A stretch of DNA of 59,191 bases, from assembly GCA_963741205.1 (NCBI GenBank), contig CAVUHW010000050.1, forward strand, positions 1 through 59,191, given 5' to 3'. The notes beneath the pieces are model-generated. The model saw only the letters and a program-made list of their open reading frames with translations, made no database searches and was not told the DNA's origin. The translations under genes and the position numbers were made by a program. Source of the stretch: Nitrospirota bacterium. Lineage in GTDB: Bacteria; Nitrospirota; UBA9217. The number at the start of each line of letters is the position of its first letter. The stretch's first letter is position 1. Shown here piece after piece: positions 30,420 through 54,273 of the stretch.

Positions 30420-31607
30420 ATGAGCCTCGTCGGCAGGCTGGAAGACCTCGCGTTACCCGACATCTTCCAGATCATCAGTCTGAGTAAAAAAACCGGGACC
30501 CTGATCGTGCGCAGCCGCAAAGGGACTGGCATGGTCGTTTTCAAAAGCGGCCAGGTGATCCAGGCGGCCAGCGATAGCATCCGCGACTCCCTCGGCAACA
30601 TACTCGTCTCACAGGGCATGCTCGACGAAGCGTCCCTGTCGCGCGCGTTGGCGCTCCAGAAACAGAAGTCCGATACGCCGCTGGGCATGATCCTCGTGGA
30701 GATAGGGGCGGTGTACCGCGCAGACCCTCGAGACCGTTGTGCGCAAGCAGATCGAGGAAATCATCTTTGACCTGCTCGCATGGGAAGAGGGTTTCTTCAA
30801 CTTCGAACTCGGCGAGATCGCTCCCAAAGACAAGATCGAGATCGACACACAGGAATTCCTCCTCAAGTCCGGCATCAGCGCCGAATACCTGCTCATGGAA
30901 GGGACGCGCATCCTCGACGAGAGGCGAAAGGACGAGAAAAAGCCCGGGGCAGCCGCGCCCCGGCCCGCGCCCCGCCGCGCCAACCCGCGCCCCAGCCGCA
31001 GAGACCCCCGGCCGCCCCGCATGTGAGCCTCGAACCGGCAAAGGAAGAATTCCGCGCCCGCATCGAGAAAGAAGATTCGCGCCACGAGATCGCGACGCTC
31101 AGATCCATGTTCGACGAACTCCGCTTCCCGACCGCCACGGCCGAGGTGACGCTCCTGATCCTCCGGTACGCGAGCGAGGTTGTGAACCGCGCCGTCCTGT
31201 TCATGGTAAAAAAAGACGAGGTGCGCGGCCTCGGTCAGTTCGGCATCGAACTGAAGGGCAAATCCGCGGACCAGGTCGTCAGAAATATCAAGGTCCCCCT
31301 CAACAAGCCCTCCTTGTTCCTTACCATCATGGAAACCCGGCGCAGTTACGCGGGTCGCCTCGAGCAGAATGAATGCAACACTTATCTGGCTACCGAACTT
31401 GGCGGCGCCGTGCCCGAGACGGTCCTGGCGATACCGCTCATCGTGGACGGGAAAATCGCCCTGATCGTCTACGGAGACAACCTGCCGGAAGGCAAGCCCC
31501 TTCGGGGCGCGGACATCCTCGAGATATTCATGAACCAGGCAGGCATGGCACTGGAGAAGGCGCTTTTAGAGAAGCGCCTCGCCGAACTTCAGAAGGAGAA
31601 AAAATGA
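30420..31607 (+). CDS. DUF4388 (PATAN-like) protein with MshEN-like motif and C-terminal GAF-like domain (frameshifted)
   Basis: LVGRLEDLALPDIFQ..KTGTL; LGNILVSQG; WEEGFFNF; IPLIVDGK..YGDN. Confidence 0.82.
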
Positions 31608-31975
31608 AGAATGTCCTTATCGTCGAAGACTCCAAGGCCATTCGCTCCATGATCAGGATGACGCTCGAAGAGGCCGGAGGTTTTTTCGCGTCTGAGGCCG
31701 GCAATGGATTCGAGGCGCTCAAGACACTCCCTACGAGACAATTCGATCTTATCATTACCGACATCAATATGCCCGATATCAACGGCCTGGAACTGATCGG
31801 TTATGTGAAGTCAAACCCGACCTATAGCGCAATCCCCCTCGTCATCGTGAGCACGGAAAAATCGGAGGAAGACAAGAAGCGGGGCATCGCGCTCGGGGCT
31901 GCGGGTTATATCGTGAAGCCGTTCAAAAAGGAAGATCTGCTTGCAGTGGTCAGGCAGGTGCTGGAGGGGAAGTAG
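31604..31975 (+). CDS. cheY: Chemotaxis response regulator CheY
   Basis: VLIVEDS, TDINMPDINGLE, VST, YIVKPF. Confidence 0.9.
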   Translation: MKNVLIVEDSKAIRSMIRMTLEEAGGFFASEAGNGFEALKTLPTRQFDLIITDINMPDINGLELIGYVKSNPTYSAIPLVIVSTEKSEEDKKRGIALGAAGYIVKPFKKEDLLAVVRQVLEGK

Positions 31976-32105
31976 AAATGCGGAATTCGGAATGCGGATT
32001 GCGGAATGAAAAACGGTACAGACGGCATGCCGTACGGACTGCAGGCATTCCGCAATGGCCGTACCAAGCGGTGCCGCGAATGCCGAAATTCCGCAATCGG
32101 AAATG
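31976..32105. repeat. GCGGAAT heptamer tandem/inverted repeat
   Basis: AATGCGGAATTCGGAATGCGGATTGCGGAAT ... ATTCCGCAAT..ATTCCGCAAT. Confidence 0.75.
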
Positions 32106-32110
32106 ATACC

Positions 32111-34209
32111 ATGGCAAAGCCCAACCATTCCATAAATGAATTTCTCGCCGAGGCGGAGGACATCCTGGAGACGGCGAACCAGTCGCTGCTCGCGCTCGAG
32201 TCCGCGCAGGCCGGGGGCGGGAGCGATCCCGACCGGGTCAATGCCCTGTTCCGGGCCGTCCATTCGTTCAAGGGGCTCGCGGGCATGTTCAGCCTCAAGG
32301 AGCCTTCGGAGCTGTCGCACAAGCTTGAGTTTCTTCTCGACGAACTTCGCCTGGGCAAGGTGGACTTAAGCCGAAGCGCCATCGACGTTCTCGTGGAGAC
32401 GGTGGCCCTCCTGGGCAGGCTCGTGCATCAGGCCGGCGGCAAACAGCCGTTCGAGGACATACAGGCGGCCCTGGAACGCATCGACGATCTCATTAAAAAG
32501 AAACCGTCAGCCTCCTCCGGCCGGCCGCTGTCGGAGCTGATCGGTCTGGACCGGGGCATCCTGCAGGTCCTGACCGAGTACGAGGAGCATCGTCTCCGCG
32601 AATGTGTCCGGGAGAGAAAGAACCTCTTCATGCTCAGGGCGGAGTTCGACCTTTTGAGTTTCGAGGCGGGAATCAAGGACCTCAATGAGCTCCTCAAGAA
32701 GCACGGCGAGATCATCTGCACGCTCCCGACGGCGGGCGGCGGGACCGGGATCGGATTTTCCATCGTCCTCGGAACGAAGGAGACCGCGCAAGCCGTACGA
32801 TCGGCGATCGCGACGCCCAACCTGAAAATCGAGACCATCTCCTATGCCGAAGCGCGAAAAGCCGACGAGCCGCGCCCCCGCGTGGATACGACAACACTCA
32901 AGTCTTCGAGCAACACGGTCCGCGTCGATATTTACAAACTCGACAGCCTGATGAATATCGTGGGTGAAATGCACCTGATTAAAAACATCGTCGGCCGGAT
33001 CGCGCGGGAGCTCCGGACGATGCACGGCTTCATGGGCCTGTCCGTCGACCTTCACAAGGCGCAGCGGGGGCTCGAGCGGAGGCTCAACGAACTCCAGGAA
33101 GGCATCCTCGAGGTCCGGATGGTGCCTATCGGCCAGATCTTCACGCGCCTCTCGCAGGTCGTCAGGATGTATGCCAGGGAAGCGGGCAAGGAGATCGATC
33201 TCGAGCTGCGCGGCGAGGAGACCGAGCTCGACAAGCTCATGATCGAAGACCTGGCCGACCCCCTCATGCACCTCATCCGGAACGCCATCGACCACGGCAT
33301 CGAGACTCCCGACGAGCGAAAACGGCTCGGCAAGCCGGAACGGGGGAGCGTGAAACTGACCGCGTTCCCCAAGGGCAACCACGTCGTTATTACCATCGAG
33401 GACGACGGGGCCGGCATCGACGCGGCCAGGATCGCGGCCAAGGCGGTGGAAAAAGGAATCCTGGCGACGGACCACGGCCTCGATACTGTGCACGGACCGC
33501 AGGGAAATCCTGGACCTTATCTTTCTTCCCGGATTCACGACCCGCGAGACCGTGACCGAGATATCGGGACGCGGCGTCGGCATGGACGTGGTCAAGCGCA
33601 ACGTGTCCAAGCTCTCCGGCATGATCGATATCCGGACCGAGCCCGGGGCCGGCACCACGTTCACCCTCACGCTCCCCATCACGCTCGCCATCATCAAAGC
33701 GCTGATCGCCGAAGCCGGCGGACGGACCTTCGCCATACCCTTGAGCTCGGTGCTCGAGATCCAGCAGGTCACGTCGGCGCAGATCGAGACCGTCGAGGGG
33801 CGGGAGGTGATGGCAGTGCGGGAAGATACCGTGCCCCTTCTCCGGACCGCGCGGCGTATTCCATCTCCCGGAACAGCGCGAGCGCGATCAGTTCTATGTC
33901 GTCCTCGTCGGCCTGGCCGAGCGACGGATGGGGATCATCGTCGACAACCTCCGGGACCAGCAGGAGATCGTCATCAAGCCCCTCGGGAAACGGCTGGCGG
34001 ACATCCCGGGCATTGCGGGGGCCACCGAACTGGGCGACCGCAGGGGCGTAGTCCTCGTGCTGGATGTCGAGTCGCTCATCGACGGGGCGTTGAAGAAGAA
34101 CAGTGGTCAGAGGCAGTCAGATGACAGAATGACAGAGGACAGAAAATCCGAAGTCGAAGGGACAATGCAAACGTGTTTGTCTTCTGGAGTTCGATCTGTG
34201 CTTAGATGA
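32111..34209 (+). CDS. cheA: Chemotaxis histidine kinase CheA (frameshifted; 3' end uncertain)
   Basis: HPt FRAVHSFKG, HLIRNAIDHG, EDDGAG, SGRGVGMDVV, CheW-like P5 domain. Confidence 0.95.
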
Positions 34210-34221: not shown

Positions 34222-35016
34222 ATGTACGAAGAATTTTACGGACTCAGGGAAAAACCGTTTAGCAAGACGCCCGACCCGCGGTTCCTGTACCAGAGCCCGA
34301 AGCACGCCGAGGCGCTCGCGCGGCTTCAGCACGCAATCGAGGAGCAGGACATCGTCCTCCTGACGGGCGAGATCGGGTCGGGCAAGACGACCCTCTCCCG
34401 GGCGTTCATCGACGGGCTGGACGCGAGCTTCCACCCCGTGCTGATCATCAACCCGCGGCTTTCGCCGTCGCAGCTTTTGCGCACCGTTGCCCTGCGCCTC
34501 GGCATGGACGATGTGTCGCGGTTCCGGCACGGGATCCTGGAGGGGATCAACGCAAAGCTCTATGAGCTCTACGAGGCGGGAAGGCGGCCGGCGATCATCA
34601 TTGACGAGGCCCAGCTCATCCCGGGCAAGGCGACGTTCGAGGAGCTGCGGCTCTTGACCAATTTTCAGCTCGACGACCGCAATCTGCTCGCGGTCGTCCT
34701 CATCGGCCAGACCGAACTGCGCGATCGCCTGAACCGCAAGCCGTACCGGGCGCTCCGGCAGCGCATCGGGATGCAGTATCATCTGGGGCCGCTCGACCGG
34801 GAAGAGACAGAGGCATACGTGCGGCACCGCCTCGAGGTGGCAGGCAGGTCCGCGCCGCTCTTCGACGATCAGGCGATAGCACTCCTGTACGAGCACTCGG
34901 GCGGCATCCCCCGCCGCATCAACATCATTGCGGGCAATGCGCTCCTTGAAGGCTTCGGGAGGGAAGCCCGGACGATCGGATCGGAGATCATCGAGAGCGT
35001 GGTGGAAGAAGAATGA
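34222..35016 (+). CDS. ExeA/GspA family AAA ATPase (no peptidoglycan-binding domain)
   Basis: MYEEFYGLREKPF..PDP, GEIGSGKTT, IIDEAQ, LIGQTEL, SGGIPRRIN. Confidence 0.9.
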   Translation: MYEEFYGLREKPFSKTPDPRFLYQSPKHAEALARLQHAIEEQDIVLLTGEIGSGKTTLSRAFIDGLDASFHPVLIINPRLSPSQLLRTVALRLGMDDVSRFRHGILEGINAKLYELYEAGRRPAIIIDEAQLIPGKATFEELRLLTNFQLDDRNLLAVVLIGQTELRDRLNRKPYRALRQRIGMQYHLGPLDREETEAYVRHRLEVAGRSAPLFDDQAIALLYEHSGGIPRRINIIAGNALLEGFGREARTIGSEIIESVVEEE

Positions 35017-35116: not shown

Positions 35117-35800
35117 ATGGACATCCTCGCAGCACGAAAAAAAGCGGCGGAGAAATCAAAGTCCCGGCAGGAGCCGGAACCGGCATCTCCGGCGGAGCCA
35201 GGGCCTGCCGGCGCGGACGAAACGCCGGCGCCTTGCGAGCCCGCTATGCCCGCGGCCGCGCCGGCTGCGCAGCCTCCTGCGCCGGCCGCGCCACCCTCGG
35301 CTCCGGCGCCCTCCGCGCCCGCGATCCCCGTGGCCGCGGTGCAGGGAGAAACGCCCGGCGATGAGAACGCGAAAGAGACCTCGAAGGAAATAGAGCTGCT
35401 CTCGTTCCGCCTGGGCGGCGAGGAGTACGCCGTCCTGGTGGACGACGTGCGGGAGGTGTTGAAGATCCGCGAACTGACCGCGGTCCCCAACACGCCCGAA
35501 TACATTCTCGGGGTAACATCGCTCCGGGGCACCATGCTTACGGTCATCGATCTCGGCAGGCGGCTCGGCCTCACCCCATGCGCCCGCGACGATCGGGCGC
35601 GCATCGTCGTCGTAAGCCCCGATGATGAAGATGTGGGGCTTTTGGTAGACCGCGTAACCGGGGTGCTCAAGATCATGCCCGAAGGGATCAAGCCGCCGCC
35701 GGAAAACGTCGAACAGGGCGCGGAGTATCTTCGCGGCATCGTCCGCAAAGACGACAGACTGGTGATTCTCCTGGACCTGACGAAGGCCGTGGGAGTTTAA
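35117..35800 (+). CDS. cheW: CheW with a long Pro/Ala-rich N-terminal linker
   Basis: LLSFRLGGEEYA, VPNTPEYILGVTSLRG, GLLVDRV. Confidence 0.9.
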   Translation: MDILAARKKAAEKSKSRQEPEPASPAEPGPAGADETPAPCEPAMPAAAPAAQPPAPAAPPSAPAPSAPAIPVAAVQGETPGDENAKETSKEIELLSFRLGGEEYAVLVDDVREVLKIRELTAVPNTPEYILGVTSLRGTMLTVIDLGRRLGLTPCARDDRARIVVVSPDDEDVGLLVDRVTGVLKIMPEGIKPPPENVEQGAEYLRGIVRKDDRLVILLDLTKAVGV

Positions 35801-35925: not shown

Positions 35926-38285
35926 ATGAAAAAAGACACGCTACACCGCAGTGCCGTGGTGCTGACGTCATTGCTCCTGGCGACGGCCCTGCTTGGGGCC
36001 TGCGCCAATTCGAACAAAAAATCGACGTCGCCTGCGACCGCTCCCAGCCAGGCAGGGGCTGTGGCGGTGGGCATGAACGTGTGCACTACCTGCCATACCG
36101 TCGTCACCGCGGACTGGCTGGCGAGCAAGCACGCGAACCTTGATCCCGCAGGCGCCCTGGACAGCCCCGGCGTTCCCGCGCTGTCCCAGATCGCAGGCTG
36201 CACCGCGAATTGCCATGACCCGAACGGCGACAGCGGTAAACTCGTGGCCGGCTACACCGGGAACGTTCCGCGCCCCGTCGTTGGCTGCGAGGCCTGCCAC
36301 GGCCCCGGAGAACTCCACGCGGACGCGGGAGGCACCGGCCCGATCGGTTTTGCAAGCGCGCCAGCCGGCGTCATCGGCACGGCGAGCACGGTTCAGGTAT
36401 CGGCCCAGTTCGCGACCTGTTCCCGATGCCATGAGCTTCTGGACCCGGTGGACCCGGCCAACACGCCTGCAACCGCCGTGCATGACGCAGGCGGGAGCGA
36501 CCCGCTCGTCGTGGCCGGGGGTACCAGCTCCAATGCGAACAGCATCACCAGCACGCACTTTGCGAGGAAGAGCGACTGGACCAATACCGACGGCATCAAC
36601 ACGCACCACACCCCGGCGGATTTCATCGCCATCTTCGGCTTTTCCATGGATTTCTCCGGCGAAAAGGTCTGCACCAATTGCCACAACCCTCACCAAAGCG
36701 CGACGATCAACCGCGAGTGGGCCCAGTCCGCCCATGCAGACCGGCAGGGCGCCAAGGAAGATCCATCGTCAAGCGCTCCACTCGGCCCGCCGTTGCAACA
36801 GGGCTTTTTCAGCAGCGCCTGGGCGCACTACAACTGGTCCTGCGACGGAACGAGCACGACGGCATGCGGCGGAACCACGGCGAGCCCCAGCGACCGAAGG
36901 CCCTGCCAGAGGTGCCACACGACCACCGGATTTATTGCCTATGCCGATGCCATCAGGACAGGAGATGTGAATACAGCGACGGCCATCAGGAACGGCCAGG
37001 TGGCCCTTGTGCCCTATACCCCCGACTTCAAGCCGGAGATGCTCAAGTGCAATGGCTGCCACACGGACATTCGGGGCACTCTGCGGAACCCCGGACCGAT
37101 AACCGCGAATTACGACTTCGTTTCCGGCGGCATCACTTATGGTCAATCTTCCCATACCTATCCCGATCTCGCGGGATCGAACGTCTGCATGGCCTGCCAC
37201 ACCGGGAGAGAAAGCGGAGATTCCATCAAGAACGCGGTCTTGTCCGGGCCGACGCTCACGACCTTCCAGAACATCTCGTTCATCAACTCCCACTACCTGA
37301 CAGCCGGCGGAACGATCTTCACGGGTCACGGGATATACGTTCGGGGCGAGGGACTATGCCAACGTCGATATTTACAAGCATGATAAAATCGGGACCCCGG
37401 ACGCCCCCGATACCGGCTCGAACGGCCCCTGCATCGGCTGCCACATGTCGCGGCCGAACAAGAACGGCAACCACATCTTTCTTCCGGTGAGCCGCGATAA
37501 AATCCGGAGAAACAGTCACCATCACGGGCATCGCGAGCGGGGTCTGCTTCCAGTGCCACGGTCCGAACGACGTCCTCATGCTCGACCTCGTCCGAGAGCA
37601 GACGGGAACTGTTCACATACCGCCCTCGAGGCGCATCAAAGACCAGCTGGAAAAACGCGGCTACTTCTTCGCCGACGCCAGCCCCTATTTCTACACACTC
37701 CGGAGCAACACCGGCCTCGTGTCGGTCACGACCGGGTCCACCATCGTCACGAATCTGACCGGGTCGTTCCCGGCGACAATATCCGGCGCAGCGTCCACGC
37801 CGGTCAAAGACCGGTTCCGCGTGGACAGCGACGGTCTCTATTACGCCGTCAAATCCAGGGACAGCGCGACACAGCTCACGCTCCAGTCTCCCTATGCCGG
37901 CCCGTCTACTCCTGCCGGCGGCGCTGCCTATACCATCATCGGCGACGCGGTGAAAAACTGGTTGACGACCTCGGGACCGGCCCCCTTCCCCTTGCCTGAT
38001 ACGGACGCCACGGGCGCTGTCAGCGGGAAAAACAACATGGGCGCGGCCTTCAACTTCAACCTCTTCCGGCACGATCCCGGGGCCTATGCGCACAACCGCT
38101 ACTACGTGAAGCGTCTCTTGTATGATTCCATCGATTGGCTCGACGATAATCTGCTCAATTTTTCGGTAGGAACGACGCTCACCGCCGTCTGCAACGCCGC
38201 GCAGCCGCCGACGTGGTGCGACGGGGCAAAGGCCTATCTTCTGCCGAACGGCGTGCTCAACGGCGTCGCCGCAGAACGTCCGTAA
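35926..38285 (+). CDS. Outer-surface multiheme cytochrome lipoprotein, OmcB/OmcC-like (frameshifted)
   Basis: Lipobox LGAC; 9 CXXCH plus one CX3CH; CHTGRESG and C-terminal GAAFNFNL..HDPGAYAHNRYYVKRLLYDSID as in Geobacter OmcB-type proteins. Confidence 0.82.
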
Positions 38286-38317: not shown

Positions 38318-39325
38318 ATGACACGATTTTTGATGCGGGAAAAATTGCTGGCACTCGCGCTGCTCGCCGTCTTCTTTGCGGCGGGGTGCGCGGTGCTCAA
38401 GGAGTCGCGGCCCATCCTGCCGATCAAGGAGTACGAAAAAATGATCGCCGGGCGGCTCGACGCGGATTACGTGGGCACGGACGCCTGCCTCAAGGCCTGC
38501 CACGCCCACGATACGATCCGCCGCTATTTCGACCTGTCCACCATGGGCGCTCAGCTCTCGAGGGAGTCGGGCATGCCGGTCGTGAACTGCGAGAGCTGCC
38601 ACGGCCCGGGGAGCCTCGCGATCGATCCGCTCACTCCCGAACGCCTTGCCGCGGACGCCATGGCGAACAAACAGACGGCCTGCGACTTCAAGACCTTCAT
38701 CGATATCAAGAACCTGCCCGCCCAGGCCAAGTCGCTCATCTGCCTCAAGTGCCATACGGCAAACGCGACCTTCAACCTCCACAACTGGAACGCGGGCGTT
38801 CACAGCGTCGCCGACGTGTCCTGCTCCGATTGCCATCCCATCCACGCGGGGCCCAACCTGAAGGTCCGTCCCCGCGACATGGCGGAGATGTGCGACAAGT
38901 GCCATGCCGACGTCAAGGCGGCGTTCACGCTGCCGAACCATCACCCGGTCCCCGAGAAAAAAGTCTTCTGTACCGACTGCCACGACCCGCACGGAAGCGC
39001 CAACGAAAAAAGCCTGCGGCGGGAGACGGTCAAGGAGACCTGCACGCAGTGCCATGCCGAAAAAGAAGGCCCCTTCGTGTACGAACACGCCGATCTGACC
39101 GAGGACTGCCGGGCCTGTCATACGCCGCACGGCTCGGTGAACAACAACCTGCTGATCCTGCGCGAACCGTTCCTGTGTCTGCAGTGCCATCCGTCGCACC
39201 AGATCGGGAGTACGACGACTCCGGAGATCAAGCAGGCGTACTACACGCGCTGCACCGACTGCCACTCACAGATCCACGGCACGGACCTGCCTTCGCCTTC
39301 CGGCCAGGGCAGATTCACCCAATAG
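38318..39325 (+). CDS. DmsE/MtrA-like decaheme cytochrome c
   Basis: 9 CXXCH plus CLKACH; YVG, HHPV, CHAEKEGPFVYEH, PHGSVN, PFLCLQCH, IHG. Confidence 0.9.
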   Translation: MTRFLMREKLLALALLAVFFAAGCAVLKESRPILPIKEYEKMIAGRLDADYVGTDACLKACHAHDTIRRYFDLSTMGAQLSRESGMPVVNCESCHGPGSLAIDPLTPERLAADAMANKQTACDFKTFIDIKNLPAQAKSLICLKCHTANATFNLHNWNAGVHSVADVSCSDCHPIHAGPNLKVRPRDMAEMCDKCHADVKAAFTLPNHHPVPEKKVFCTDCHDPHGSANEKSLRRETVKETCTQCHAEKEGPFVYEHADLTEDCRACHTPHGSVNNNLLILREPFLCLQCHPSHQIGSTTTPEIKQAYYTRCTDCHSQIHGTDLPSPSGQGRFTQ

Positions 39326-41276: not shown

Positions 41277-42206
41277 ATGATGAGAAGGACTCTGTATATA
41301 CTGTTCTGCGCGATGCTCCTGGGCGGGATTCCCGCGTTCGCGGCGGAGAAGACGGTCGGAGTGGTCATGTCGGGGAACATCGGATATTACCAGGAAATCC
41401 ACAGGGCCTTCGTCGCTGAGCTTGCCAGGGAGGGCCTTGATCACCGAAAGATCGACACGCTGCTCCAGATGCCTTCCCCGGACCCGATGTCGTGGACGAA
41501 CGCGACCCGGAAACTGGTGGTCGCCGAGGTCGATGTGCTCGTCACCTATGGCGCTCCCGCGGCCTTGGCCGCCATCAAGGAGACAAAGAGCGTGCCGCTC
41601 GTTTTTGCCGGCGTCTATGACCCCGCTGCCTGCGGCGTCGCGGCCAGGAATGTTACCGGCATCAGTTCGAAAGTGCCGCTCACCAGCCTGCTCAAGTACC
41701 TGAAAAAAATGGTGCCCTTTACCAAGCTTGCCATCGTCTACAACGAGCTGGAGCCTGATTCGGTCAAGCAGGCGGAGGAGCTAGCCCAGCTCGAGGGCCA
41801 ATACGGGTTCCAGACGGTAAGGATGTCCGTGAAGAAAACGGAAGACGCCAAGAAGCTCTCCTTCGCCGGCAAGGCGGACGCGGTTTTGATCTCGGTCAGC
41901 TCCGTCGTGAACGAGGCCCTCGATGCGGTCGTGAAAAACGCTCATGCCGCAAACGCCCCCACCATCAGTCAGCTCGGCGGCACAGCAGAACACGGCGTCA
42001 TCCTGAGCCTTGCCCCGAGCGCGACGGAGCAGGGAGAGGCCGCAGCCAGACTTACGGCTCGCCTCCTGCGGGGTGAAAAACCTGCCAGCCTCCCCTCGGA
42101 GGTGCCCAAGCTCGTGGAGCTGGTCTTGAACCTCAAGGAGGCGGGCACCATGGGGCTCAAGGTGCCCTTCGATCTCATCACGGACGCGACCAGGGTGATC
42201 AAATGA
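41277..42206 (+). CDS. ABC-type substrate-binding protein (ABC_sub_bind-like) with no cognate transporter
   Basis: Signal peptide, [42 protein letters not shown]. Confidence 0.85.
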
Positions 42207-44476: not shown

Positions 44477-47266
44477 GTGGGCATCGGCGTAAGACAACGT
44501 CTCATAGTCCTGATCTTTTCGGGTCTCTTCGTGGCCATGGGACTTACCGGGACCTATCAATACTTCACGGAGGAGCGGGAGCTGATCGCGGAGGCCCGCG
44601 GTCGCGGCGAAGAGTCCTCCAAGTTCCTCGCGGCGCTCGCCGCGCCCTCCCTGTCGGCGTCGGACACCGGCGGGCTGGAGCGCCTGGCAAAATCGTTCAT
44701 GCGTTCGTCCGATGCCCGTGAGGTCGCCATTGCCGACCGGGAGGGGCGTCAGCTCGTCCACACCGCCAATCCGCTTCCCTCGGGGAAAGGCATCCCGATC
44801 GCGCCGGCGCCCGTCATGGCGGACTCGGTGCGGCTCGGCGAAGTCCGGATCTCCGTGTACCCGGCCGACCTGGAAGGCAGGCTCATGGCCCGGGCGATCC
44901 AAATGCTTCTCGAGTACCTCGTGACCTTCTTCATCCTTGCGGGGCTGGTGTTCTCCTGGGCCACCAGGTCCATCACGTCGCCGCTCAGGGGGCTCGCGAG
45001 CACCCTCCGGGACGTGACCGACCGGAAAGATTTCACGCTGCGGGCCGCTGCGGGCCGCGGCGACGAGCTCGGTGAACTCGCGAACGGAGTCAATCACCTC
45101 ATCCAGCGGATGGAGCAGTTCGTCGCCGAGATCGGCGCCGTCTCTGCGCGTATCGATGAGCTCTCCCCGACGCTTGCGGCCGATACGCGCGAGGTCCGGA
45201 AAAGCGCCGACGTCGAGGCCGAGGCCATCCAGAGCGTTTCCTCGTCAGTCTCGGAGATGTCGTCGTCGATCCAGTCCATAGCCGAGAGCGCGGACAGCCT
45301 CAAGGCTTCGGCCGAAGAGACCTCGTCGGCTATCCTCGAGCTGAACGCGTCCAACCAGGAGGTTGCGCGCCATACCGGGGAACTGACGAACTCGGTGGAG
45401 GACGTGACCGCGTCGGTCACCGAAATGATCGCGTCGATCCGCGAGGTGGCGGGCCATGTCGAAAGTCTTTCGTCAGCGGCCGAGCAGACCTCTGCGTCCG
45501 CCGTTGAAATCGAGGCAACGGTCCACGAGGTCGAGCGCGCCGCGATGGAGTCCGCCAAACTCTCGCTGCAGGTATCGGCGGAGGCGAAGGACATCGGCGT
45601 GACCTCGATCCAAAAGACCGTCGCTGCGATCAATGCGATCAAGGAAGCGGTGGAGCGCTACTCAGGCCTGGTCTCCCGGCTCGGGAAGCGTTCCGAGGAG
45701 ATTGGCAAGATCCTCGGCGTGATCGTCGAGGTAACGGAGAGGACGAACCTTTTGGCGCTGAACGCCTCGATCCTTGCGGCGCAGGCCGGCGAGCACGGCA
45801 AGGGGTTCGCCGTGGTTGCGGAAGAGATCAAGGCGCTCGCCGACCGCACGGCCGGTTCCGCCCAGGACATCGCCAAGCTCGTCACGGCTGTCCAGAAGGA
45901 GGCGAAGGAGGCCGTTCTCGCCATGTCCGACGGTCTCGCGGCCGTGGGCGAGGGAGTGAAGCGCTCCCAGGAGGCGGACTCAGCGCTCGATAAGATTCTG
46001 GACAGCTCGGCCCGATCGGCGGACATGTCCACCATGATCGAACGGGCGATGAGCGAACAGGCTCGCGGGATCAAGCAGGTAACCGAAGCGATCACGAACG
46101 TGAAGCAGATGATGGTTCAGATCGCCGCGGCCACCCAGGCGCAGAACAAGGGCACTGAGATGATCCTGGGCACGGCGGAGAACATGCGGGACATCTCGCG
46201 TCGCGTGAAAGCGGCGATGACCGAGCAGGGGCGCGGCGGCAAACAGATCGCCGTAGCGGCTGAAAACGTATCCATGCGGGCCGCTACGATCGCGACGGGG
46301 ACAGGGGAGCAACAACAGGCAATCATCCAGATCCTGAAGTCCGTAGAACGGATCCAGGACCTCCCCCGCGAGAACCAGAAACGCATGGAGGGCCTGGCCG
46401 CCGCTCTCAAGGCCTTCGGCGAACAGGCGGACCTCCTCAAACAGGAATTCAGCGCCGTAACCGTCGGGAAGGGCCGCCGCGCGGGCGGCGCGCTCTTGAT
46501 GGGCGTGATTCCGCTCGACTCTCCGGCGGAGATGTTCCGTCGGTTCACACCCCTCGCCGACTTCCTCGGACGAACTATCGGCAGACGGGTGGAGCTGTCG
46601 ACGGCGGTGGATTTCGCCCGTACGGTAGGCGATCTCGCAGAGGGCCATACGGACCTGGCATTCCTGACCCCGACGACGTACATCGAGGCGCGCCGGCAAT
46701 GCGGCGCCGAGCTTCTCGCGAAGGCGCTCCGCCGGGGCGTGCCCGCGATGCACGCGGCCATCGTGGTCCGGACCGACGGCGGCATCAAGCGGATCGAGGA
46801 TCTCAAGGGTAAGCGCTTCGCCTTCGGCGACAAGATGTCCACCACGAGCTATCTCATCCCTCGCTCCATGCTGACCGAGGCCGGCCTCGGGCTGGACGAT
46901 TTGAAGGGGCATGCCTTCCTGGGCCATCACGATGACGTGGCAAAGGCGGTCCTGGCGGGGGAGTACGACGCCGGGGGGCTCCGCGAGACGATCGGCAGGG
47001 CGTTTGAAGGCCGGGGGCTCTCCGTCCTCAAGACGTCCGCCGAAATACCCGAGTTCAACATCTGCGCGTCCAAGGACCTGGACCGGACCGTCGCGGAAGA
47101 ACTCAAAAAAGCGTTGCTTTCCCTGGACGCAAACAACCGGGAGCATGCACGGATGCTTGGCCTGATCGATCCGGAGTACACGGGCTTCACGGAGGCAGCG
47201 GACAGCGATTACGACGGGGTCCGCCGGATCATGGAGCGGTTGGCGGGAACGGAAATCACGGTCTAA
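44477..47266 (+). CDS. Methyl-accepting chemotaxis protein fused to a C-terminal PhnD/phosphonate-binding-like domain
   Basis: 2 TM, HAMP, MCP tip; then [47 protein letters not shown] in the same frame. Confidence 0.9.
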
Positions 47267-47321: not shown

Positions 47322-49431
47322 ATGCTTGTTCGAGAGAGAATACGGCGGCTGGTCAAAGACCCGATCGAAACCAGCCTGGGGCTGAAGTTCCTGGTGACGC
47401 TGACCGGCGTCATATCCCTGTTCATGGTGGCCGGCACGTTGTTCGTCGCACGCGTCCTCATGGAGGCGCAGTACCGGGAACTGGACACTCGCGGCAGGGA
47501 GATGGGGCAGTTCCTGGGGAGGGCCGGGGCCGATCCGCTCATTCAGAAGGACCTGGTCGCCCTCGACGCCCTTGTCGCCCAAGCGGTAAAGTCCCAGGAC
47601 ATGCTCTACACCTATGTGTCGGACCCTGAGGACAAGATCCTCAGCAATTCCTTCGTGAGTTTCGACAAAGAGCGGCCCGAGGTCAAGGAATTTCTGGAGC
47701 AGGAAAAAAGCACCGACATGAACGTCCTCGCGTCGAGAGCGCGGGAGAAGCTGGATCCGCTCGAAGTGCGGGTTGACATCCAGATCGGCACGGCGCGGCC
47801 CGGCTCGGTCACCATGGGCTTTTCCCGGGCTGGCGTCAAAAAGAACGCTCGGAAGATCGTTCTGCTGCTGCTGGCGACGAGCCTGGTGATCGTCTCGTCC
47901 TTTGCCGCCCTGGTCTTCGTGATGACGCGGAGGATGATCGTCGTCCCGACCGCCGAGGCCGTGGCCGTGGCCACAAGCGCCGCCGCGGGTGATCTCTCGC
48001 GCGGCGTGCACGTGCGCTCCCTCGACGAGATCGGCATGCTCGGACGGGGCCTGAATCGCATGATCATCGGGCTCAAGGGCATGATCGAAAACGTGAGAGA
48101 GGCCGCCCGCGGGACGGAGTCAGTCCGGCTCGAGGTCAAACAGATGTCGGCGGAGATAACGGCCGGGAGCAAGGTGCAGGCCGAGGCCGTCGAAGAGGCC
48201 GCGTCGTCGGTCAACGAAATGCATTTCGCCCTCAAGGAAATAGCGAGCAACGTCGATGATGTCTACAAGACGTCGGAGCAGACCTCGTCCGCGGTGATCG
48301 AGATGGCGGCGTCGATCAACGAGGTGGCCGGGACCATGTCGGAGCTCTCGTCGGCCATCGAGGAGACCTCGGCCGCGATAGGCCAGATGTCCGCCGCCGT
48401 CCGGCAGATCGCCGATAACGTACAGGTCCTCTCGTCGGCCGCGGAAGATACGGCCGCGTCGACGACGGAGATCAGCGCCTCGGTGAAGGAAGTGGAGTCC
48501 AGCGCAAAGGAATCCGCTGCACTGGCGGAGGCCGTGGCGGCCGACGCCCAGCAGTTCGGCATGCATTCGGTTGAAAAGACCATCGAAGGCATGAACCGCA
48601 TCGACGCCACGGCGCGAAAGACCGCCGAGGTGGTGAATCGCCTGGGTGAACGGGCGGAAAATATCGGGACCATCCTGACCGTGATCGAGGACATCACGGA
48701 CCAGACCGGCCTTCTCGCGTTGAACGCGGCGATCCTCGCGGCTCAGGCCGGGGAACACGGCAAGGGCTTCGCCGTGGTCGCGGCCGAAATTAGAGAACTG
48801 GCAAACCGCACTGCCGCCTCAACGAAGGAAATCACGGCCCTGATAGGCTCCGTGCAGGATGAATCGCGGGAGGCCGTCGGCGCCATGCGGGAAGAGGTCG
48901 CCCTGGTTGAAGAAGGCGTGAAGCTGGCGCACGAAACGAGGGGGGCGCTCGAAAAAATCCTGGAGCGCGCCGACCTGTCCCGCGATATGAGCAAGAACAT
49001 CAACAGGGCCGCGAGCGAACAGGCCCGGGGCATCAGCCAGGTGAGCGGCGCCGTCGACAGGATAAACGAGATGACCCACCAGTTCGCCCGGGCCGCGGTC
49101 GAGCAAAAGGCCGGCAGCGAACAGATCATACGGGCGTCGGAGCGCATGCGGGAGTTGACGCGGTTCGTGAAAAAATCCACCGACGAACAGGCAAAGGGGG
49201 GCAAGGACATAACGGCCGCCGTGGAAGACATGAGTTCCCGAATAGGCCTGATCAACAGGGCCGCCGGCGAAGTCCAGTCCGGAAGCGACCTCATCGTCAA
49301 ATCCATCGAACGGATCAAGGAAATCGCGAGGGCCAATGCCGACCTGGCCGCACGGCTCCACGGCGCCATGGACGTCATGGCCGTCACAGTCGGAGGCCCT
49401 CAAGAAGGACATCGAGAAATTCAGAACCTGA
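47322..49431 (+). CDS. Methyl-accepting chemotaxis protein 3 (indel near the 3' end)
   Basis: 2 TM, HAMP (DEIGMLG), [23 protein letters not shown]; corrected end ..KDIEKFRT*. Confidence 0.94.
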
Positions 49432-49513
49432 CAATTGCGGATTGCGGAATGATTTCGAAAGAGTGCGGTCCGGAATCTCTGAACTTCACGAGTAAAGCCT
49501 CATAGCCTTAGCC

Positions 49514-49633: not shown

Positions 49634-49676
49634 AACATGGGGTTTTCTGATGTCCTTAGTAAGCACGGAGTGCGTA

Positions 49677-50204
49677 ATGAAGACATCGCCAGACAAAAAA
49701 ACGGCCGCCCAGGACAGCACGGCGCAGCTCGTCACGTTCCAGGTGGGGACGGAGGAATACGGGCTGGACATCGGCGCCATCACCGAGGTCATCCGTCCGC
49801 TTAAGGTCACACCCCTGCCCCGGATGCCTGAATTCATCGAGGGCGTGATCAACCTTCGCGGCGCCATCATTCCGATCATCGACCTCCGAAAGCGCTTTGC
49901 GCTCGCGAAGATCATCGACAATCCGAGGACCATGCGCATGGTGATAACCCGGGGGGCCGTCGCGGGGGCGTCCGGGGCCGACAAGGGGCTTTTGGGGTTC
50001 CTCGTGGACGGCGTGCACGAGGTGCTCCACCTGCCGAAGAAAGATATCGAGCCCGCGCCTCGCGCGGCCACCGGAGAATTTTCCGATTTCATCACGGGCA
50101 TGGGGAAGGTCGGCGAGCGGCTCATCATCCTCCTGGATATCCCCAAAATTTTGAGCCAGCAGGAGCGTTCGGCGCTGGCGAAGGCGGGACATGACGAACC
50201 TTGA
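49677..50204 (+). CDS. cheW: Chemotaxis coupling protein CheW
   Basis: QLVTFQVGTEEYG, IEGVINLRG, LIILLD. Confidence 0.92.
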   Translation: MKTSPDKKTAAQDSTAQLVTFQVGTEEYGLDIGAITEVIRPLKVTPLPRMPEFIEGVINLRGAIIPIIDLRKRFALAKIIDNPRTMRMVITRGAVAGASGADKGLLGFLVDGVHEVLHLPKKDIEPAPRAATGEFSDFITGMGKVGERLIILLDIPKILSQQERSALAKAGHDEP

Positions 50205-52185
50205 CGAGCTTGGCAGAAGACTCGGGAGCAGTGACGCCGAGGAGCGGCGCGAAGCGGCCGTCGAACTGAGCCGCGGGGGTGCGGAGGCCGTGCCCCTGCT
50301 GTTCCGCTCCCTGGGAGACCGCGACTGGCGGGTGCGCAAAACCGCCGTTGAAGCGCTCGTATCGATCGGCGGAGCAGCGCGTCATCGAAGGTCTCCTGCG
50401 GACACTGAACGCTCCCGACAACGCGGGAGCGCGAAACTCCGCCATCGAAGCCCTCGTTCGCATCGGCGTGCCCGCCGTCGACGCCCTGCTCCCCCTCGTC
50501 GAGACGCCGGACCCGGATGTGAGAAAGTTCGTCGTCGATATTCTCGGCGACATCAAAGACGCCAGGGCTGTGCCGGTTCTGATCGACCGCCTGGGAGATG
50601 CCGACGAAAACATCCGGGTGGCCGCTGCTGAGGCGCTCGGCAAGATCCGAGACCCCCGGTCGGTCGATGCCTTGCTCGCCTGCCTCACGCGCTACAATCA
50701 GGGCTGGCTTGATTATGCCGCCGCCGAAGCGCTGGGAGAGATCGGCGACGTTCGGGCGCTGGAACCGCTCATCACGGCGCTCGGCCGCAGCAGCCTTCGG
50801 GAGCCGGTCCTCGAAGCGCTTGGCAAGATCGGGAACGCCGATACGCTGGGGCCGCTGATCGCGAGCCTCGGCGATCCGCTCCGGATCGTCCGCGAAGTAT
50901 CCATCGTTGCGGTATGCCGGGATCTACCGGAAAAGCACGGAGCCGGACCGGGAGAAGATCAGATCCGCCGTTCGCTCCGGGATGACTGAACGCGCCGTGG
51001 ATTTCCTTGAAGAGATCCTTATCACGAGCAGCGGCGAACTGCTGAAGTCGACCATAACGCTGCTCGGCTGCGCCGGCCGGGAGAGTTCCATCAGGAAGAT
51101 CCTCGCCCTTTTGAAGGAAGAGGACCTCGAGGAGCCGGTCGTGCAGTCGCTTCAATTCCTGGACCGCGAACAGGCCGGCCTCCTGCTCGGCTACCTTTCG
51201 AGCGACAACAACCTCGTCAGGCGGTCGGTCGCCCGGGTGCTGGGGAGCCTGGGCGGTCCCGGCTGCCGAGGATCCCCTGATCCGGTTGCTGGCAGACGAA
51301 AACGGCCATGTACGGAACACCGCGGCCGAGGCCCTCGGCCGCATGAAGAGCAAAAAAGCGGTCGCGCCCCTGCTCGCCCTTTTGGCCGACGAATACCAGA
51401 ACGTCCAGGATTGCGCCATCCAGGCGCTGGCAGCGATCGGCGACGAGTCTGTCCTCGACGGCCTGATCAGGGGCTTTTCCTCGTCCGATGCCTCCATGCG
51501 CCGGAACATCGCCCTCCTGCTCGGAAAATTCCCGGTGGAACGGGCCATTGACGCGCTTGTCTTCGCGCTCAAGGATGAGGAGCCGGAGGTCAGAAAGGCC
51601 GTCGTCCAGGCGCTCGGCGCCGCGGCCGGCGGGAAGGCGCTTCGCCCGCTGATGCTCGCGATTACCGACGACGACCCCGAAGTCCGCATGCTGGCGGCGG
51701 AGGCGCTCGGATCGGCCGGCACGATCGAAGCGCGCGACGCGCTCGTCCCCCTCCTTGAGGACAGCGATCTGTGGGTCAGGGCAGCGGCGGCCCGGGGCCT
51801 CGGTGAAATCGGAGGAGAGGCGGCGGCCGCCCTGCTCACCTCAAGACTTCAGGCCGCGGCCGATATCTTTCTCCTCGCTCTCATCGACGCGCTGGGCAAA
51901 CTGGCGTTCCCGCAGTCGCTTGGTCCGCTCCTCAAGCTGGCGGACCACCCCGACCCCGAAGTTCGTAAAACGGTTTTGGCGGCGCTCGCCTCTTACGGCG
52001 GCGAGTCCGTCCGGCAGGCCTTCATCGCGCGCTTGTCGGACCCTCATTGGAGCGTTCGCAAGGCCGCAGTCCTGGCGCTCGGACGGGAGCGGACGGAGGA
52101 TGTCGACGCCCTCCTGGAAGCGATCGTCGCTCGCGACCCGGATACGGCGGTAAGGCAGGCGGCCGAAGAGGCCTTGGGGAGATAA
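50191..52185 (+). CDS. HEAT / PBS-lyase repeat protein (frameshifted)
   Basis: Many D..VR.AA.EALG repeats. Confidence 0.9.
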
Positions 52186-53079
52186 ATGTTCGAAGAGCAG
52201 ACCATTCCGCTGCCCGATGACGTCTTCAGGCTCCTCCGGGATTTCATCCACGGCTACTGCGGTATCTATTTTGACGACGGGTCAAAGTTCCTGCTCGAAC
52301 GCCGGCTTTCACGGCGCCTCGAGCAGCACCGGCTCAAGAGTTTCGAGGAGTACTATCACTTCCTGCGGTATGACCGGAAGCGGGAAGAGGAACTCGTCGC
52401 CCTTATCGACAACCTGACGACGAATGAAACGTATTTCTTCCGCGAGAGCCCGCAGCTCCGCGCGTTTTCCGAAGAGATCCTGCCCGAACTACGCGCGAGT
52501 CTCGCCGACCGCAAGTCGCTCCGCATCTGGAGCGCCGGCTGCTCCACCGGCGAGGAGCCGTACACCATCGCCATTCTCCTCCTCGAGTCGGGGGACTGGT
52601 GGCGCGACTGGCAGGTCGATATTATCGGGAGCGACATCAACCAGCGGGTGCTGCACACTGCCAGAAAGGGCGTCTACAAGAAGGGCGCGCACCGCGCGAC
52701 GGACCCCCGCATGCTGGCAAAGTATTTCATCACCGACGAGAAGGGCGATTACCGGATCATCGACCGGGTCAAGGAGCTGGTTTCGTTCAGCTACCTGAAC
52801 CTGCTCGATCCCTACAAGACCAGCCTGGTCGGCGGCATGGACGTCATTTTCTGCCGGAACGTGATCATCTACTTCGACCGCGAGGCGAAGAAAAAGGTGA
52901 TCGAGGGGTTTTATCACAAACTCCGGGACGGCGGCTACCTGCTCCTGGGACATTCCGAGTCCCTGATCAATATCTCGAACGCCTTCGTACTCCGCACGCT
53001 TAAAAACGACATGGTTTACCAGAAACCGGTGAGGATGAAAACTGAAAATTCCAAATATCAAACGACAAATCTCAAATAA
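52186..53079 (+). CDS. cheR: Chemotaxis methyltransferase CheR
   Basis: TTNETYFFRE, IWSAGCSTGEEPY, DVIFCRNVIIYF, LGHSES. Confidence 0.96.
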   Translation: MFEEQTIPLPDDVFRLLRDFIHGYCGIYFDDGSKFLLERRLSRRLEQHRLKSFEEYYHFLRYDRKREEELVALIDNLTTNETYFFRESPQLRAFSEEILPELRASLADRKSLRIWSAGCSTGEEPYTIAILLLESGDWWRDWQVDIIGSDINQRVLHTARKGVYKKGAHRATDPRMLAKYFITDEKGDYRIIDRVKELVSFSYLNLLDPYKTSLVGGMDVIFCRNVIIYFDREAKKKVIEGFYHKLRDGGYLLLGHSESLINISNAFVLRTLKNDMVYQKPVRMKTENSKYQTTNLK

Positions 53080-53145
53080 AATCCAAGTTCAAAATTCCGA
53101 CATTCAAAAACACCCGGCACCTGACTTTTGGTACTTGAAATTTTA
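53045..53145. repeat. CAAATCC/CAAATTC-type heptamer element overlapping the cheR 3' end
   Basis: AAATTCCAAATATCAAACGACAAATCTCAAA ... TTTGGTACTTGAAATTT. Confidence 0.6.
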
Positions 53146-53196
53146 CCATGATCCCCATGATGCTTGATATCCGGGATTCCGGCAAGGAGCAAGTTC

Positions 53197-54273
53197 GTGA
53201 ACAAGATCAAGGCCCTCGTAGTTGACGATTCCGCGTACAACCGCACGGTGATCTCCAAGATGCTGGCGAGCGACAAGATGATCGAGGTCGTCGGCAGCGC
53301 CACCGACGGCGTCGACGCCATTGCCAAAACGCTCCGCTTTCTGCCCGACGTGATAACCCTTGATCTCGAGATGCCGAATATGGACGGCTTCTCATTCCTC
53401 AGGTGGCTCATGCTGGAGCGGCCGACGCCCGTCATCGTTCTCTCCTCCCGCTCCGACAGCCAGAGTGTGTTCCGCGCCCTCGAGCTCGGCGCCGTGGAGT
53501 TCCTTTCCAAACCCGAGTCACGCATCTCCCGGAGCATCGAGTCCGTCAGGGACGAGCTCCTCTCCAAGGTCCACGCGGTCCTGAACCTTCAAATGTCCAA
53601 AGTCAAGTCGACGATGGATCTCCTGGCGAGGGAACAACCGGCGCCCGTGGTCCGCAAGGAAGACGAGGCTCCGCGGGAGCAGGGTTTGATCGAGGTGGTG
53701 GCCATCGCGTCGTCCACGGGCGGGCCGCCGGCGCTGCAGGCGCTCCTGACCGGCCTTCCGGGGGACCTCTCCGCGGCCATCGTCATCGCCCAACATATGC
53801 CCGCGGGGTTTACGAGGAGCTTCGCCGAGCGGCTGAACAAACTTTCGGCGCTCGTCGTGCGCGAGGCGGCCCCGGGGGACCGCGTGGAGCCGGGTACCGC
53901 GCTGATCGCGCCCGGGGGCCAGCATCTCGTCGTCAAGCGGGACAGCGCCGGCCTCGTGACAGACCTCGTTCCCCGCGGCCCCAAAGACATGTATATTCCG
54001 TCGGCGGACCGGATGATGGTCTCCGTGGCCGAGGCCTGCGGCCCCGCGGCGCTCGGGATCGTCCTCACGGGGATGGGCAAGGACGGCGCCGAAGGCGTGG
54101 TGGCCATCAAAAAAAAGCAGGGGAAGTGCCTGGCCGAGAGCGAGGAAAGCGCTGTTATCTTCGGCATGCCGCATGAGGCCATCAAAACGGGGGCTGTGGA
54201 CAAGGTCCTGCCCCTGAGCGGCATGGCGGAGGAGATCAAGCTGCGGTGCGCGCCGAAAAAAAAACCTGCCTGA
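53197..54273 (+). CDS. cheB: Chemotaxis methylesterase CheB
   Basis: REC domain, SSTGGP, QHMP, LTGMGKDG, FGMP. Confidence 0.96.
   Translation: MNKIKALVVDDSAYNRTVISKMLASDKMIEVVGSATDGVDAIAKTLRFLPDVITLDLEMPNMDGFSFLRWLMLERPTPVIVLSSRSDSQSVFRALELGAVEFLSKPESRISRSIESVRDELLSKVHAVLNLQMSKVKSTMDLLAREQPAPVVRKEDEAPREQGLIEVVAIASSTGGPPALQALLTGLPGDLSAAIVIAQHMPAGFTRSFAERLNKLSALVVREAAPGDRVEPGTALIAPGGQHLVVKRDSAGLVTDLVPRGPKDMYIPSADRMMVSVAEACGPAALGIVLTGMGKDGAEGVVAIKKKQGKCLAESEESAVIFGMPHEAIKTGAVDKVLPLSGMAEEIKLRCAPKKKPA

Follow-up and report, generated by a model that had tools for sequence, protein, structure and literature searches.

A decaheme cytochrome, outer-membrane barrel and binding protein inherited with a signal transducer in Nitrospirota: a candidate trans-envelope sensory unit

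Organization of the Chemosensory Operon

The window, i.e., the whole 59,191-nucleotide stretch of Nitrospirota DNA analyzed here, harbors a chemosensory operon in which every gene lies on the + strand, at the positions given by the first-pass annotation, all of which hold. The operon is preceded by a sigma-70-like promoter candidate (30363..30390, + strand; 10/12 match, extended −10), which is a consensus match only, six such sites having been found against 3.1 expected in shuffles. The first gene encodes a DUF4388 (PATAN-like)-GAF protein (30420..31607) with a weak MshEN-like c-di-GMP motif (NF053729, 35.7 bits, below the cut-off of 38), and is followed by cheY (31604..31975), cheA (32111..34124, with an approximate end), the gene of an ExeA-like AAA ATPase (34222..35016), whose position matches that of GSU2221 in the Geobacter cluster, and cheW1 (35117..35800). 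Next come the genes of a surface lipoprotein cytochrome c with about 10 hemes (35926..38285), a lipoprotein decaheme cytochrome of the DmsE/MtrA fold and the OmcI subfamily (38318..39325), an MtrB-like outer-membrane β-barrel (39336..41268), and a type I periplasmic binding protein of family PF04392, hereafter SBP (41277..42206). Re-measurement confirmed the intergenic gaps of 32, 10, and 8 bp that separate these four genes, and the reported overlap of the SBP stop with the MCP1 start is real and amounts to 4 bp. MCP1 (42203..44296) is composed of an sCache_3_2 periplasmic domain (residues ~33–180), a HAMP domain, and a long signalling domain of ~64 heptads, and it precedes MCP2 (44477..47266), which carries a PhnD-like binding domain at its C-terminus, and MCP3 (47322..49505). 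The genes of CheW2 (49677..50204), a HEAT-repeat protein (50191..52185), CheR (52186..53079), and CheB (53197..54273) complete the map. Rfam families were found neither in the window nor in the loci of four relatives, giving no support for a riboswitch.

Several of these genes are interrupted in the window assembly, a feature that had gone unmentioned in the first-pass annotation. The lipoprotein cytochrome reads across three frames, a single frameshift interrupts the barrel near 39755, the DUF4388-GAF gene and cheA have two frameshifts each, and the HEAT gene has three; all of the frameshifted genes are intact in relatives. It was observed that one base is missing at the barrel break (39757) in two public-run contigs, and one base at position 30715 in one such contig, these contigs being short, of low depth, and derived from related strains. 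The breaks at these two positions are therefore probably assembly errors. The many frameshifts might also speak for a chimeric assembly or a chance insertion of recent date, as might the finding that, in the window genome (G000), contig C22 carries the GAF and CheY genes that come after cheB in relatives. However, the same junctions recur in 37 genomes from two families, which makes this explanation extremely improbable; a chimera at the junctions, envisaged by the earlier annotation, is refuted by their conservation.

The Decaheme Cytochrome, the Barrel, and the Optional Cap

The identification of the second cytochrome as a DmsE/MtrA-like decaheme protein was upheld by its TIGR03508 score (248.9 bits, cut-off 192.2) and by its nine CxxCH motifs and one CxxxCH motif, and the protein is a homologue of Shewanella MtrA (6r2q_A, E 7.8e-50). 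Its invariant features comprise the lipobox Cys24, the CxxxCH of heme 1, His64, Met76, Ala101, and Cys122. The lipobox Cys was present in 87/87 Nitrospirota decahemes, and the OmcI signature (lipobox, CxxxCH, His64, and Cys122) in those same 87 as well as in 65/65 decahemes of the Geobacter clade. Two MtrA histidines, which we take to be distal heme ligands, align with the invariant Met76 and Ala101 of the decaheme. Judged by sequence, the decaheme is unlike MtrA at its periplasmic end, where Met76, Cys122, and CxxxCH are invariant. In a quick, unrooted decaheme tree, family f1 formed one clade and the kinase-linked copies fell in several weakly supported places; because of this weak support and the lack of a root, no order of events is claimed.

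The PF11854 profile did not match the window barrel itself, and it matched the barrels of many relatives. The modelled barrel of an intact relative, with ~26 strands and an N-terminal region of 100 residues of low confidence, matched MtrB best (Foldseek E 2.6e-11), in agreement with the earlier assignment; against 6r2q_B, it gave a VIA Z of 17.0, with an rmsd of 9.6 over 479 residues, the next chain reaching a Z of 16.0.

The estimate of about 10 hemes for the surface lipoprotein was borne out by nine CxxCH motifs and one CxxxCH motif, although these had to be counted across three frames. One of its nearest Atlas clusters belongs to the OmcB family. The lipoprotein was absent from 6 of the 15 in-operon loci with a readable slot, and almost none of the loci away from the che operon have it.

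Conservation of the Decaheme-Barrel-SBP-Transducer Unit

A survey of 80 GTDB Nitrospirota loci, in which related genomes are not independent samples, showed that the genes of the decaheme, the barrel, and the SBP are inherited as one unit together with a downstream transducer. The barrel followed the decaheme in 79 of the 80 loci, the remaining one being truncated, and the SBP followed the barrel in 70/72 scorable loci. A chemoreceptor or a haem-sensor kinase was encoded at most two genes away in 64/68 loci, within or outside the che operon, and the 4-bp overlap of the SBP stop with the next start was found in 55/60. A complete three-gene conduit of the MtrCAB kind had initially been proposed as the unit; its genes are present, but the conserved core is decaheme-barrel-SBP, and the lipoprotein is optional.

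The che ATPase orthologue was also present in 55/56 decaheme-bearing genomes. Because 37 of the 56 sampled orthologue-bearing genomes keep the decaheme 1–5 kb downstream of this ATPase on the same strand, the placement of the conduit inside the che operon is not due to chance. The converse arrangement, with cheW directly beside the MCPs and the conduit elsewhere, had been regarded as evidence against a functional link; cheW indeed adjoins the MCPs in four relatives (G013, G015, G068, and G084), and the cassette lies away from the che operon in 15/56 genomes. These arrangements look like cases of secondary loss, for which a deletion scar in one relative (G011) speaks, or of relocation together with a receptor. 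Where the conduit was lost, the SBP was usually lost or decayed as well (8/9 scorable genomes, G027 excluded), and four MCP1s of conduit-less genomes carry a CxxCH heme sensor instead. In a comparison aimed at relaxation of the MCP1 sensor domain after conduit loss, its identity to the family consensus was 0.58–0.65, versus 0.52–0.86.

The swapped CxxCH sensors of three genomes (G001, G010, and G182) matched PF11845 only below the cut-off and had no PDB relative, and the kinase CxxCH domains tested matched no Pfam family except in locus L102; for these, the label of heme sensor therefore rests on the CxxCH motif. PF21563 was found in four che-cluster MCPs, in G027, and in L102. The MCP tree leaves out 13 rows whose tip motif was missed by the pattern. 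PhnD-like binding proteins or domains recur on or beside the transducers. A search for longer SBP fusions returned seven distant ABC-type proteins, none fused to a decaheme or an MCP, which constitutes weak evidence.

Predicted Docking of the SBP on the Decaheme

The modelled complex of decaheme and SBP scored 0.72, with the best of three controls at 0.00; the score mark applied was reached by 116/157 solved pairs and by 2/215 mismatched pairs. The runs agreed in 100% of contacts, and the partner pLDDT was at least 91. In this model, SBP residues 62–83 rest on the N-terminal region of the decaheme. The SBP interface residues Q64, P66, N75, and R78 are invariant in 75/75 Nitrospirota and 40/40 Geobacter-clade SBPs, and E40, G45, G53, P87, V89, E92, and G96 of the decaheme interface in 87/87 and 65/65 sequences, respectively. 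The two SBP copies without an adjoining conduit were each altered at one invariant interface residue. The SBP interface as a whole had a mean conservation of 0.675 against a background of 0.615, a value reached by 15% of random sets and therefore not above background. The predicted docking site of the SBP lies at the periplasmic end of the decaheme and involves residues that both phyla conserve.

The SBP still has the fold of a two-lobed binding protein (TM 0.83 against 3LKV), and the TorT complex 3O1I was among its fold matches. Its gene adjoins that of a membrane sensor, as in SBP-stimulated receptor systems: in TorT-TorS, LuxP-LuxQ, and MBP-Tar, a type I periplasmic binding protein is likewise encoded beside its sensor (reviewed in PMC8050422). 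In those systems, the SBP reads a soluble ligand, whereas the docking partner predicted for the present SBP is a cytochrome of the outer membrane; the word 'cytochrome' is absent from the main text of that review.

Relation to the Geobacter and Shewanella Systems

By gene order and sizes, the window operon resembles the electrode-sensing Esn/che cluster of G. sulfurreducens (GSU2224-2212): PATAN-GAF, CheY, CheA, ATPase, and CheW, then CheW, HEAT, CheR, CheB, GAF, and CheY, the last two being those found on C22 in the window genome. Between the two cheW genes, Geobacter Esn has a CheY and no MCP, whereas in the window this slot is taken up by the conduit together with the SBP and three long MCPs. 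The Esn cluster probably corresponds to the delta-proteobacterial beta group of Tran et al. 2008 (PMC2577667), whose che clusters lack mcp genes, in contrast to the window cluster with its three. No F-class is assigned to the che operon, since a literature search for an F10/HEAT class returned no paper.

The triad itself resembles another G. sulfurreducens cluster, GSU1228-1231 (omcI), which encodes a lipoprotein cytochrome, an outer-membrane channel, an ABC SBP, and a receiver. The window decaheme shares 54% identity over 327 aa (E 2e-128) with the G. sulfurreducens lipoprotein cytochrome P0299, whose length (337 aa) and gene context identify it as GSU1228 (OmcI). The order of decaheme, channel, and PF04392 SBP and the interface motifs of SBP and decaheme are common to the Geobacter clade. 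The omcI-clade decahemes differ in having His at position 76, where those of Nitrospirota have Met, and the cassette lies outside the che operon, without a cap gene, and what comes after it is a lone receiver (27) or an MCP (3). Throughout the Geobacter/Desulfuromonas clade, the triad was found outside the che cluster, with no recognised transducer after the SBP in 11/41 scorable loci. On electrodes, Tn-Seq values were −0.83 for omcI, −0.19 for GSU1229, and +0.74 for GSU1230, versus −2.4 for esnB, −2.1 for the che-cluster ATPase, and −2.8 for esnC (PMC5585712, supplement 3). Since the former do not phenocopy the latter, the triad is not the required Esn input in that organism and under that condition.

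An ABC ATPase gene (GSU1227) lies just upstream of the triad in the Geobacter clade, and metal uptake was proposed for the Geobacterales operons of OmcI, an MtrB-like porin, an ABC ATPase, and an SBP in PMC11492766. Within the open-access literature searched for a wire-SBP-receptor unit, this was the only study found to mention the triad, as a transport system. The unit could serve redox-assisted solute capture, in which the wire reduces or oxidises a metal or oxyanion outside the cell, or a ligand passes through the barrel, and the SBP captures the product at the periplasmic face for a transporter (uptake) or a receptor (ligand sensing). The two-lobed fold of the SBP and the recurrent PhnD-like domains are in line with such capture, and a ligand hand-over would also fit the predicted docking. 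Against it, no ABC ATPase signature was found within 4 kb in the 80 Nitrospirota loci when ATPases were scanned (three matches lay at 4–9.5 kb, and a transporter might be encoded farther away), generic ABC ATPases gave the highest scores for the upstream ATPase of Geobacter-like loci, and translation of the SBP gene is coupled to that of a receptor gene rather than of a permease gene, so that this explanation is considered unlikely, if still worth weighing. In a Desulfuromonas-like locus read by eye, the upstream ATPase lay among Mla permease-like and MCE protein-like genes, which also speaks against solute capture.

The likeness to Shewanella MtrCAB (PDB 6R2Q) extends to a homologous decaheme, the best fold match of the barrel, and a multiheme surface partner. 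The conduit could be an ordinary respiratory one that shares its transcript with the che pathway or is under its control, with the SBP as a chaperone or a passenger; many family members have an extracellular multiheme cap, and no other PF11854 match was found in the window genome, although this profile also misses the window barrel. The window decaheme differs from that of MtrCAB in its lipobox, the CxxxCH of its first heme, and the extra invariant Cys122; the cap is OmcB-like, and the unit consistently has an SBP and a transducer nearby. Against a respiratory role, the cap is optional, no partner with at least three hemes was found within 4.7 kb besides the cap and the 13-heme proteins of two loci (L149 and L150), and the SBP is predicted to cover the periplasmic end, the side from which electron donors reach MtrA (PMC7198977). 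In addition, a G. sulfurreducens strain with five other conduit clusters deleted did not reduce metals, and omcI was not among the deletions described (PMC6148476), which low omcI expression could also explain. Altogether, a respiratory role of this kind appears improbable.

A Candidate Sensory Wire

The decaheme, the barrel, and the SBP are rather likely to constitute a dedicated trans-envelope sensory unit. Points that count against this reading are the electrode Tn-Seq values, the background-level mean conservation of the SBP interface, and, in the Geobacter/Desulfuromonas clade, the position of the triad away from the che cluster, the loci with no recognised transducer, and the ABC ATPase gene upstream. 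The proposal that the conduit is a sensory input to the Che pathway was supported, and extended by the varied transducers and the SBP-decaheme model; mineral or electrode redox state could be what it reports. As judged from the homologous MtrAB, the decaheme, anchored by its lipid, would sit in the barrel with hemes 1–2 toward the periplasm, and the heme chain would equilibrate with extracellular redox-active material, either directly or via the optional OmcB-like cap. The SBP would dock on the periplasmic decaheme end, where MtrA takes electrons from soluble cytochromes, and the altered ligands (Met76, and the free Cys122 or His64) may act as a redox-dependent switch of SBP binding or conformation. 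The target of the SBP could then be the MCP1 sCache domain, in the way that other SBPs stimulate their receptors, and the signal would pass through CheA/CheY of the Esn-type pathway to a non-flagellar output, e.g., matrix, type IV pili, or attachment to surfaces. The transducer fed by the unit would differ in other lineages, being a lone receiver, an orphan MCP, or a histidine kinase with a haem sensor.

A broader generalization appears quite possible, if short of probable: a distinct class of signalling device, in which an MtrAB-like haem wire acts as an antenna instead of a respiratory cable, and a dedicated binding-protein adaptor, pluggable interchangeably into chemoreceptors, histidine kinases, and receivers, reads the modified hemes at the periplasmic end of the wire, across Nitrospirota and Desulfuromonadia, including omcI-GSU1229-GSU1230 of G. 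sulfurreducens. If so, a cell could directly measure the potential of a mineral, an electrode, or a partner cell, which bears on the means by which electroactive bacteria perceive electron donors or acceptors that are insoluble. The Mtr system of Shewanella is linked only indirectly to chemoreceptors, Mtr-dependent taxis relying on CymA and the respiratory conduit together with an unlinked Cache MCP (PMC5789149), and the question of the input to the Geobacter Esn pathway was raised in PMC5585712. The cassette offers a concrete physical route from wire to adaptor to receptor, with named interface residues, and binding, redox dependence, and mutant phenotypes are testable because an orthologue exists in the genetically tractable G. 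sulfurreducens. Moreover, where genomes of Nitrospirota or Geobacter give 'MtrAB/DmsE' matches, these may be miscounted as evidence of iron respiration or oxidation.

As for the output of the pathway, FlhA was not found in 24 of the 26 family genomes with the cassette that were searched, and three PilT-family matches were detected in the window genome.

Conserved Position of the Conduit Cassette in the Che Operon

The che operon extends over 30420-54273 of the forward strand, in which a DUF4388-GAF gene (start 30420), cheY, cheA, an ExeA-like ATPase gene and cheW1 are followed by genes for a lipoprotein cytochrome, a decaheme cytochrome, an MtrB-like barrel, a PF04392 solute-binding protein (SBP) and three chemoreceptors (MCP1-MCP3), and then by cheW2, HEAT, cheR and cheB (end 54273). 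The spacings of 32, 10, 8 and -4 bp reported in the first-pass annotation for the conduit, SBP and MCP1 genes were reproduced on recomputation. A scan reporting consensus matches, which are not evidence of function, gave a good promoter match at 30363-30390 and listed no terminator-like site on the forward strand from cheW1 to the SBP start.

The presence of the cassette in the che operon is real and conserved. A decaheme orthologue (at least 55% identity) was found in 15 of 40 relatives, which are kin and hence not independent; barrel, SBP and MCP were immediately downstream in 15/15, and directly upstream was cheW1 or cheW1-lipoprotein in 14 and a contig end in one. In a phylum sample of 201 genomes, which overlaps with the 40-relative and GTDB-scan sets, 56 had the orthologue and 82 had the che ATPase, with 55 of the 56 carrying both; the decaheme was placed inside the che operon in 37 of these genomes, while 4 had it on a separate unresolved contig and 15 at another location. 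The closest loci were nearly all from Nitrospirota.

Composition of the Unit and Exchange of Transducers

The locus counts in this section are based on the best 80 of 306 relatives in a GTDB scan. It had been claimed that lipoprotein cytochrome, decaheme and barrel form a complete conduit; the pairing of decaheme and barrel held (79/80 loci), whereas the lipoprotein, a surface cap (639-904 aa and 9-10 heme motifs across 23 loci), was limited to part of the in-operon loci. The barrel was followed by the SBP in 70/72 scorable loci, and in 55/60 the SBP stop shared 4 bp with the start of the following gene. The gene after the SBP (68 scorable loci) was an MCP in 50 and a PhnD-like protein in 10, with a CxxCH-bearing kinase next in 9 of these 10 (Pfam-confirmed in the 7 tested); the others had a sigma-54 regulator with a haem kinase (1), a 13-heme cytochrome with an MCP (2), an upstream MCP (2) or no recognised transducer (3). 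The MCPs measured shared an arm length of 242/226 residues, about 64 heptads, except at locus L149.

Variants of this arrangement were also observed. At L149 and L150, the 13-heme cytochrome separates the SBP from a shorter MCP, and at L139 (5147-8308) decaheme and barrel are followed by SBP_bac_8, not PF04392, and then by an MCP, which is an independent swap of the SBP adaptor. MCP2 of the window (44477-47266) carries a PhnD-like binding domain at its C-terminus, past the signalling hairpin, where a cytoplasmic location is expected; free PhnD-like genes recur ahead of kinases.

Decaheme N-Terminus and Predicted SBP Docking

Along with genetic linkage and modular transducer exchange, an altered decaheme N-terminus was demonstrated. 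In MtrA the N-terminal end extends into the periplasm, where it contacts electron donors (PMC7198977), and it is at this end that the decaheme differs from MtrA. The lipobox Cys, a CxxxCH at heme 1, His64, Met76, Ala101 and a free Cys122 were invariant in 87/87 decahemes. Met76 and Ala101 align to two MtrA His positions, which on our reading of the alignment would be distal ligands; a sister clade has His at position 76, as would suit a ligand site. MtrB was the best match to the barrel model, which has a pLDDT of 69 and is poor over its N-terminal 100 residues; the SBP belongs to the type I binding proteins, with 3LKV/3LFT as its nearest matches.

When decaheme 25-335 and SBP 24-309 were modelled as a complex, the score was 0.72 (best control, 0.00), the scoring mark being reached by 116/157 solved and 2/215 mismatched pairs; runs agreed in 100% of contacts, with partner pLDDT of at least 91. 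The model supports, rather than shows, decaheme-SBP binding. Predicted contacts involve decaheme 37-97 and SBP 62-83, 158 and 186. SBP Q64, P66, N75 and R78 were invariant in 75/75 Nitrospirota and 40/40 sister-clade sequences, and N75 or R78 was changed in both SBP copies without an adjoining conduit. Mean interface conservation was above background on the decaheme side (2.4% of random sets) and not on the SBP side (15%). By title, none of the PDB relatives found for either chain was a decaheme-SBP complex.

Sister Clade and Geobacter sulfurreducens

The sister clade came from a metagenome scan made with distant matches, of which the best 80 of 390 results, some of them near-duplicates, were used; by cluster name they belong to Geobacter, Geomonas, Trichlorobacter and Desulfuromonadales. 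Among these 80, His replaced Met76 in 71 loci, of which 43 showed the SBP, 27 were truncated loci and 1 was unresolved; the 43 continued with a small receiver (27), an MCP (3), nothing recognised (11) or a contig end (2). Their gene order and sizes correspond to those of G. sulfurreducens GSU1222-1234 (omcI, outer-membrane channel, ABC SBP, receiver; PMC5585712), and P0299 of that species (337 aa) shares 54% identity with the window decaheme.

The order of the window che operon equals that of GSU2224-2212, the Esn cluster with esnB and esnC, both required for electrode colonisation (PMC5585712). A simple model in which the conduit is wired to Esn has, in this same source, the mild scores of omcI-cluster insertions against it (-0.83, -0.19 and +0.74, i.e., little defect, versus -2.1 to -2.8 for esn genes), as well as the many Desulfuromonas-like triads without an adjoining transducer and the ABC ATPase upstream of the triad in the sister clade. 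A G. sulfurreducens strain with five clusters deleted cannot reduce metals even though omcI does not belong to those clusters, which is consistent with a non-respiratory role (PMC6148476); the main text of that paper does not name omcI. GSU1231, the small receiver after the SBP, had zero transposon insertions and was classed as essential in PMC5585712; being only 396 bp, it may have escaped insertion by chance.

Loss of the Conduit and CxxCH-Bearing Receptors

The che operon is retained in family members without the conduit, whose loss is secondary. It had been asked whether cheW adjoins the MCPs in relatives: cheW1 leads directly to MCP1 in G013, G015, G068 and G084. G023 keeps the SBP without the conduit, and the SBP of G002 is decayed, its region being a more decayed version of the one that bears a deletion scar in G011. 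That scar (L055:10875-11468, reverse strand) retains 35 bp from the beginning of the lipoprotein cytochrome gene (88.6% match to window 36001-36035), which run with almost nothing in between into sequence from the middle of the SBP gene.

The MCP1 sensor carries a CxxCH motif in conduit-less G001, G010, G182 and G185. In other families, with the conduit absent from the che cluster, the first MCP bore CxxCH in 7/12 clusters (G027 and 11 others, several broken by rearrangement), with PF21563 found where tested. Because of these sensors, receptors of this che pathway appear to be repeatedly haem-based.

Proposed Role and Output

Porin-cytochrome conduits are known. So are SBP-stimulated receptors (PMC8050422) and Mtr-dependent taxis through respiration (PMC5789149), and the OmcI-porin-SBP operon of Geobacterales has been taken as metal uptake (PMC11492766). 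No open-access literature was found on the cassette as a sensory input or on its coupling to MCPs and kinases. The cassette is probably a signalling module, one assembled from known kinds; that it forms a distinct class of redox antenna is held with slightly less than even confidence. The decaheme would sit inserted in the barrel, with the SBP predicted to dock on it, a putative redox switch at hemes 1-2, and the SBP acting, presumably, on the periplasmic sCache domain of MCP1. The G. sulfurreducens orthologue makes the sensory-input question directly testable.

The output may be non-flagellar. FlhA was found in 8/41 family genomes and in 2/26 with the cassette; neither flgL nor flhA was found in the source genome (G000; 84% complete, frameshift-rich), which has three PilT matches. 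No more than three MCP tip motifs were found in this same assembly, every one in the che operon.

Sequence Quality and Surroundings of the Operon

Five operon genes of the window are frameshifted, their counterparts being whole in relatives; at two of the breaks, the extra base is missing in low-depth contigs of related strains. Relatives carry GAF and CheY genes after cheB, which in G000 lie on another contig (C22:89720-90939), and the window beyond 54273 has lower GC (0.44-0.48), with DUF1295, DUF2760 and Hsp70-like genes; there is either a rearrangement or a misjoin downstream of cheB. At 29675-30172, yajQ (DUF520) was observed, which with lolA lies upstream of the operon in most family members. 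YajQ has a role related to c-di-GMP, and this neighbour and a weak MshEN-like motif in the first operon gene hint at such a link. Divergent multiheme cytochrome genes with 12 and 4 CxxCH were found at 18707-19612 (reverse strand) and 20345-21481 (forward strand), and G000 has 56 ORFs with at least three CxxCH.
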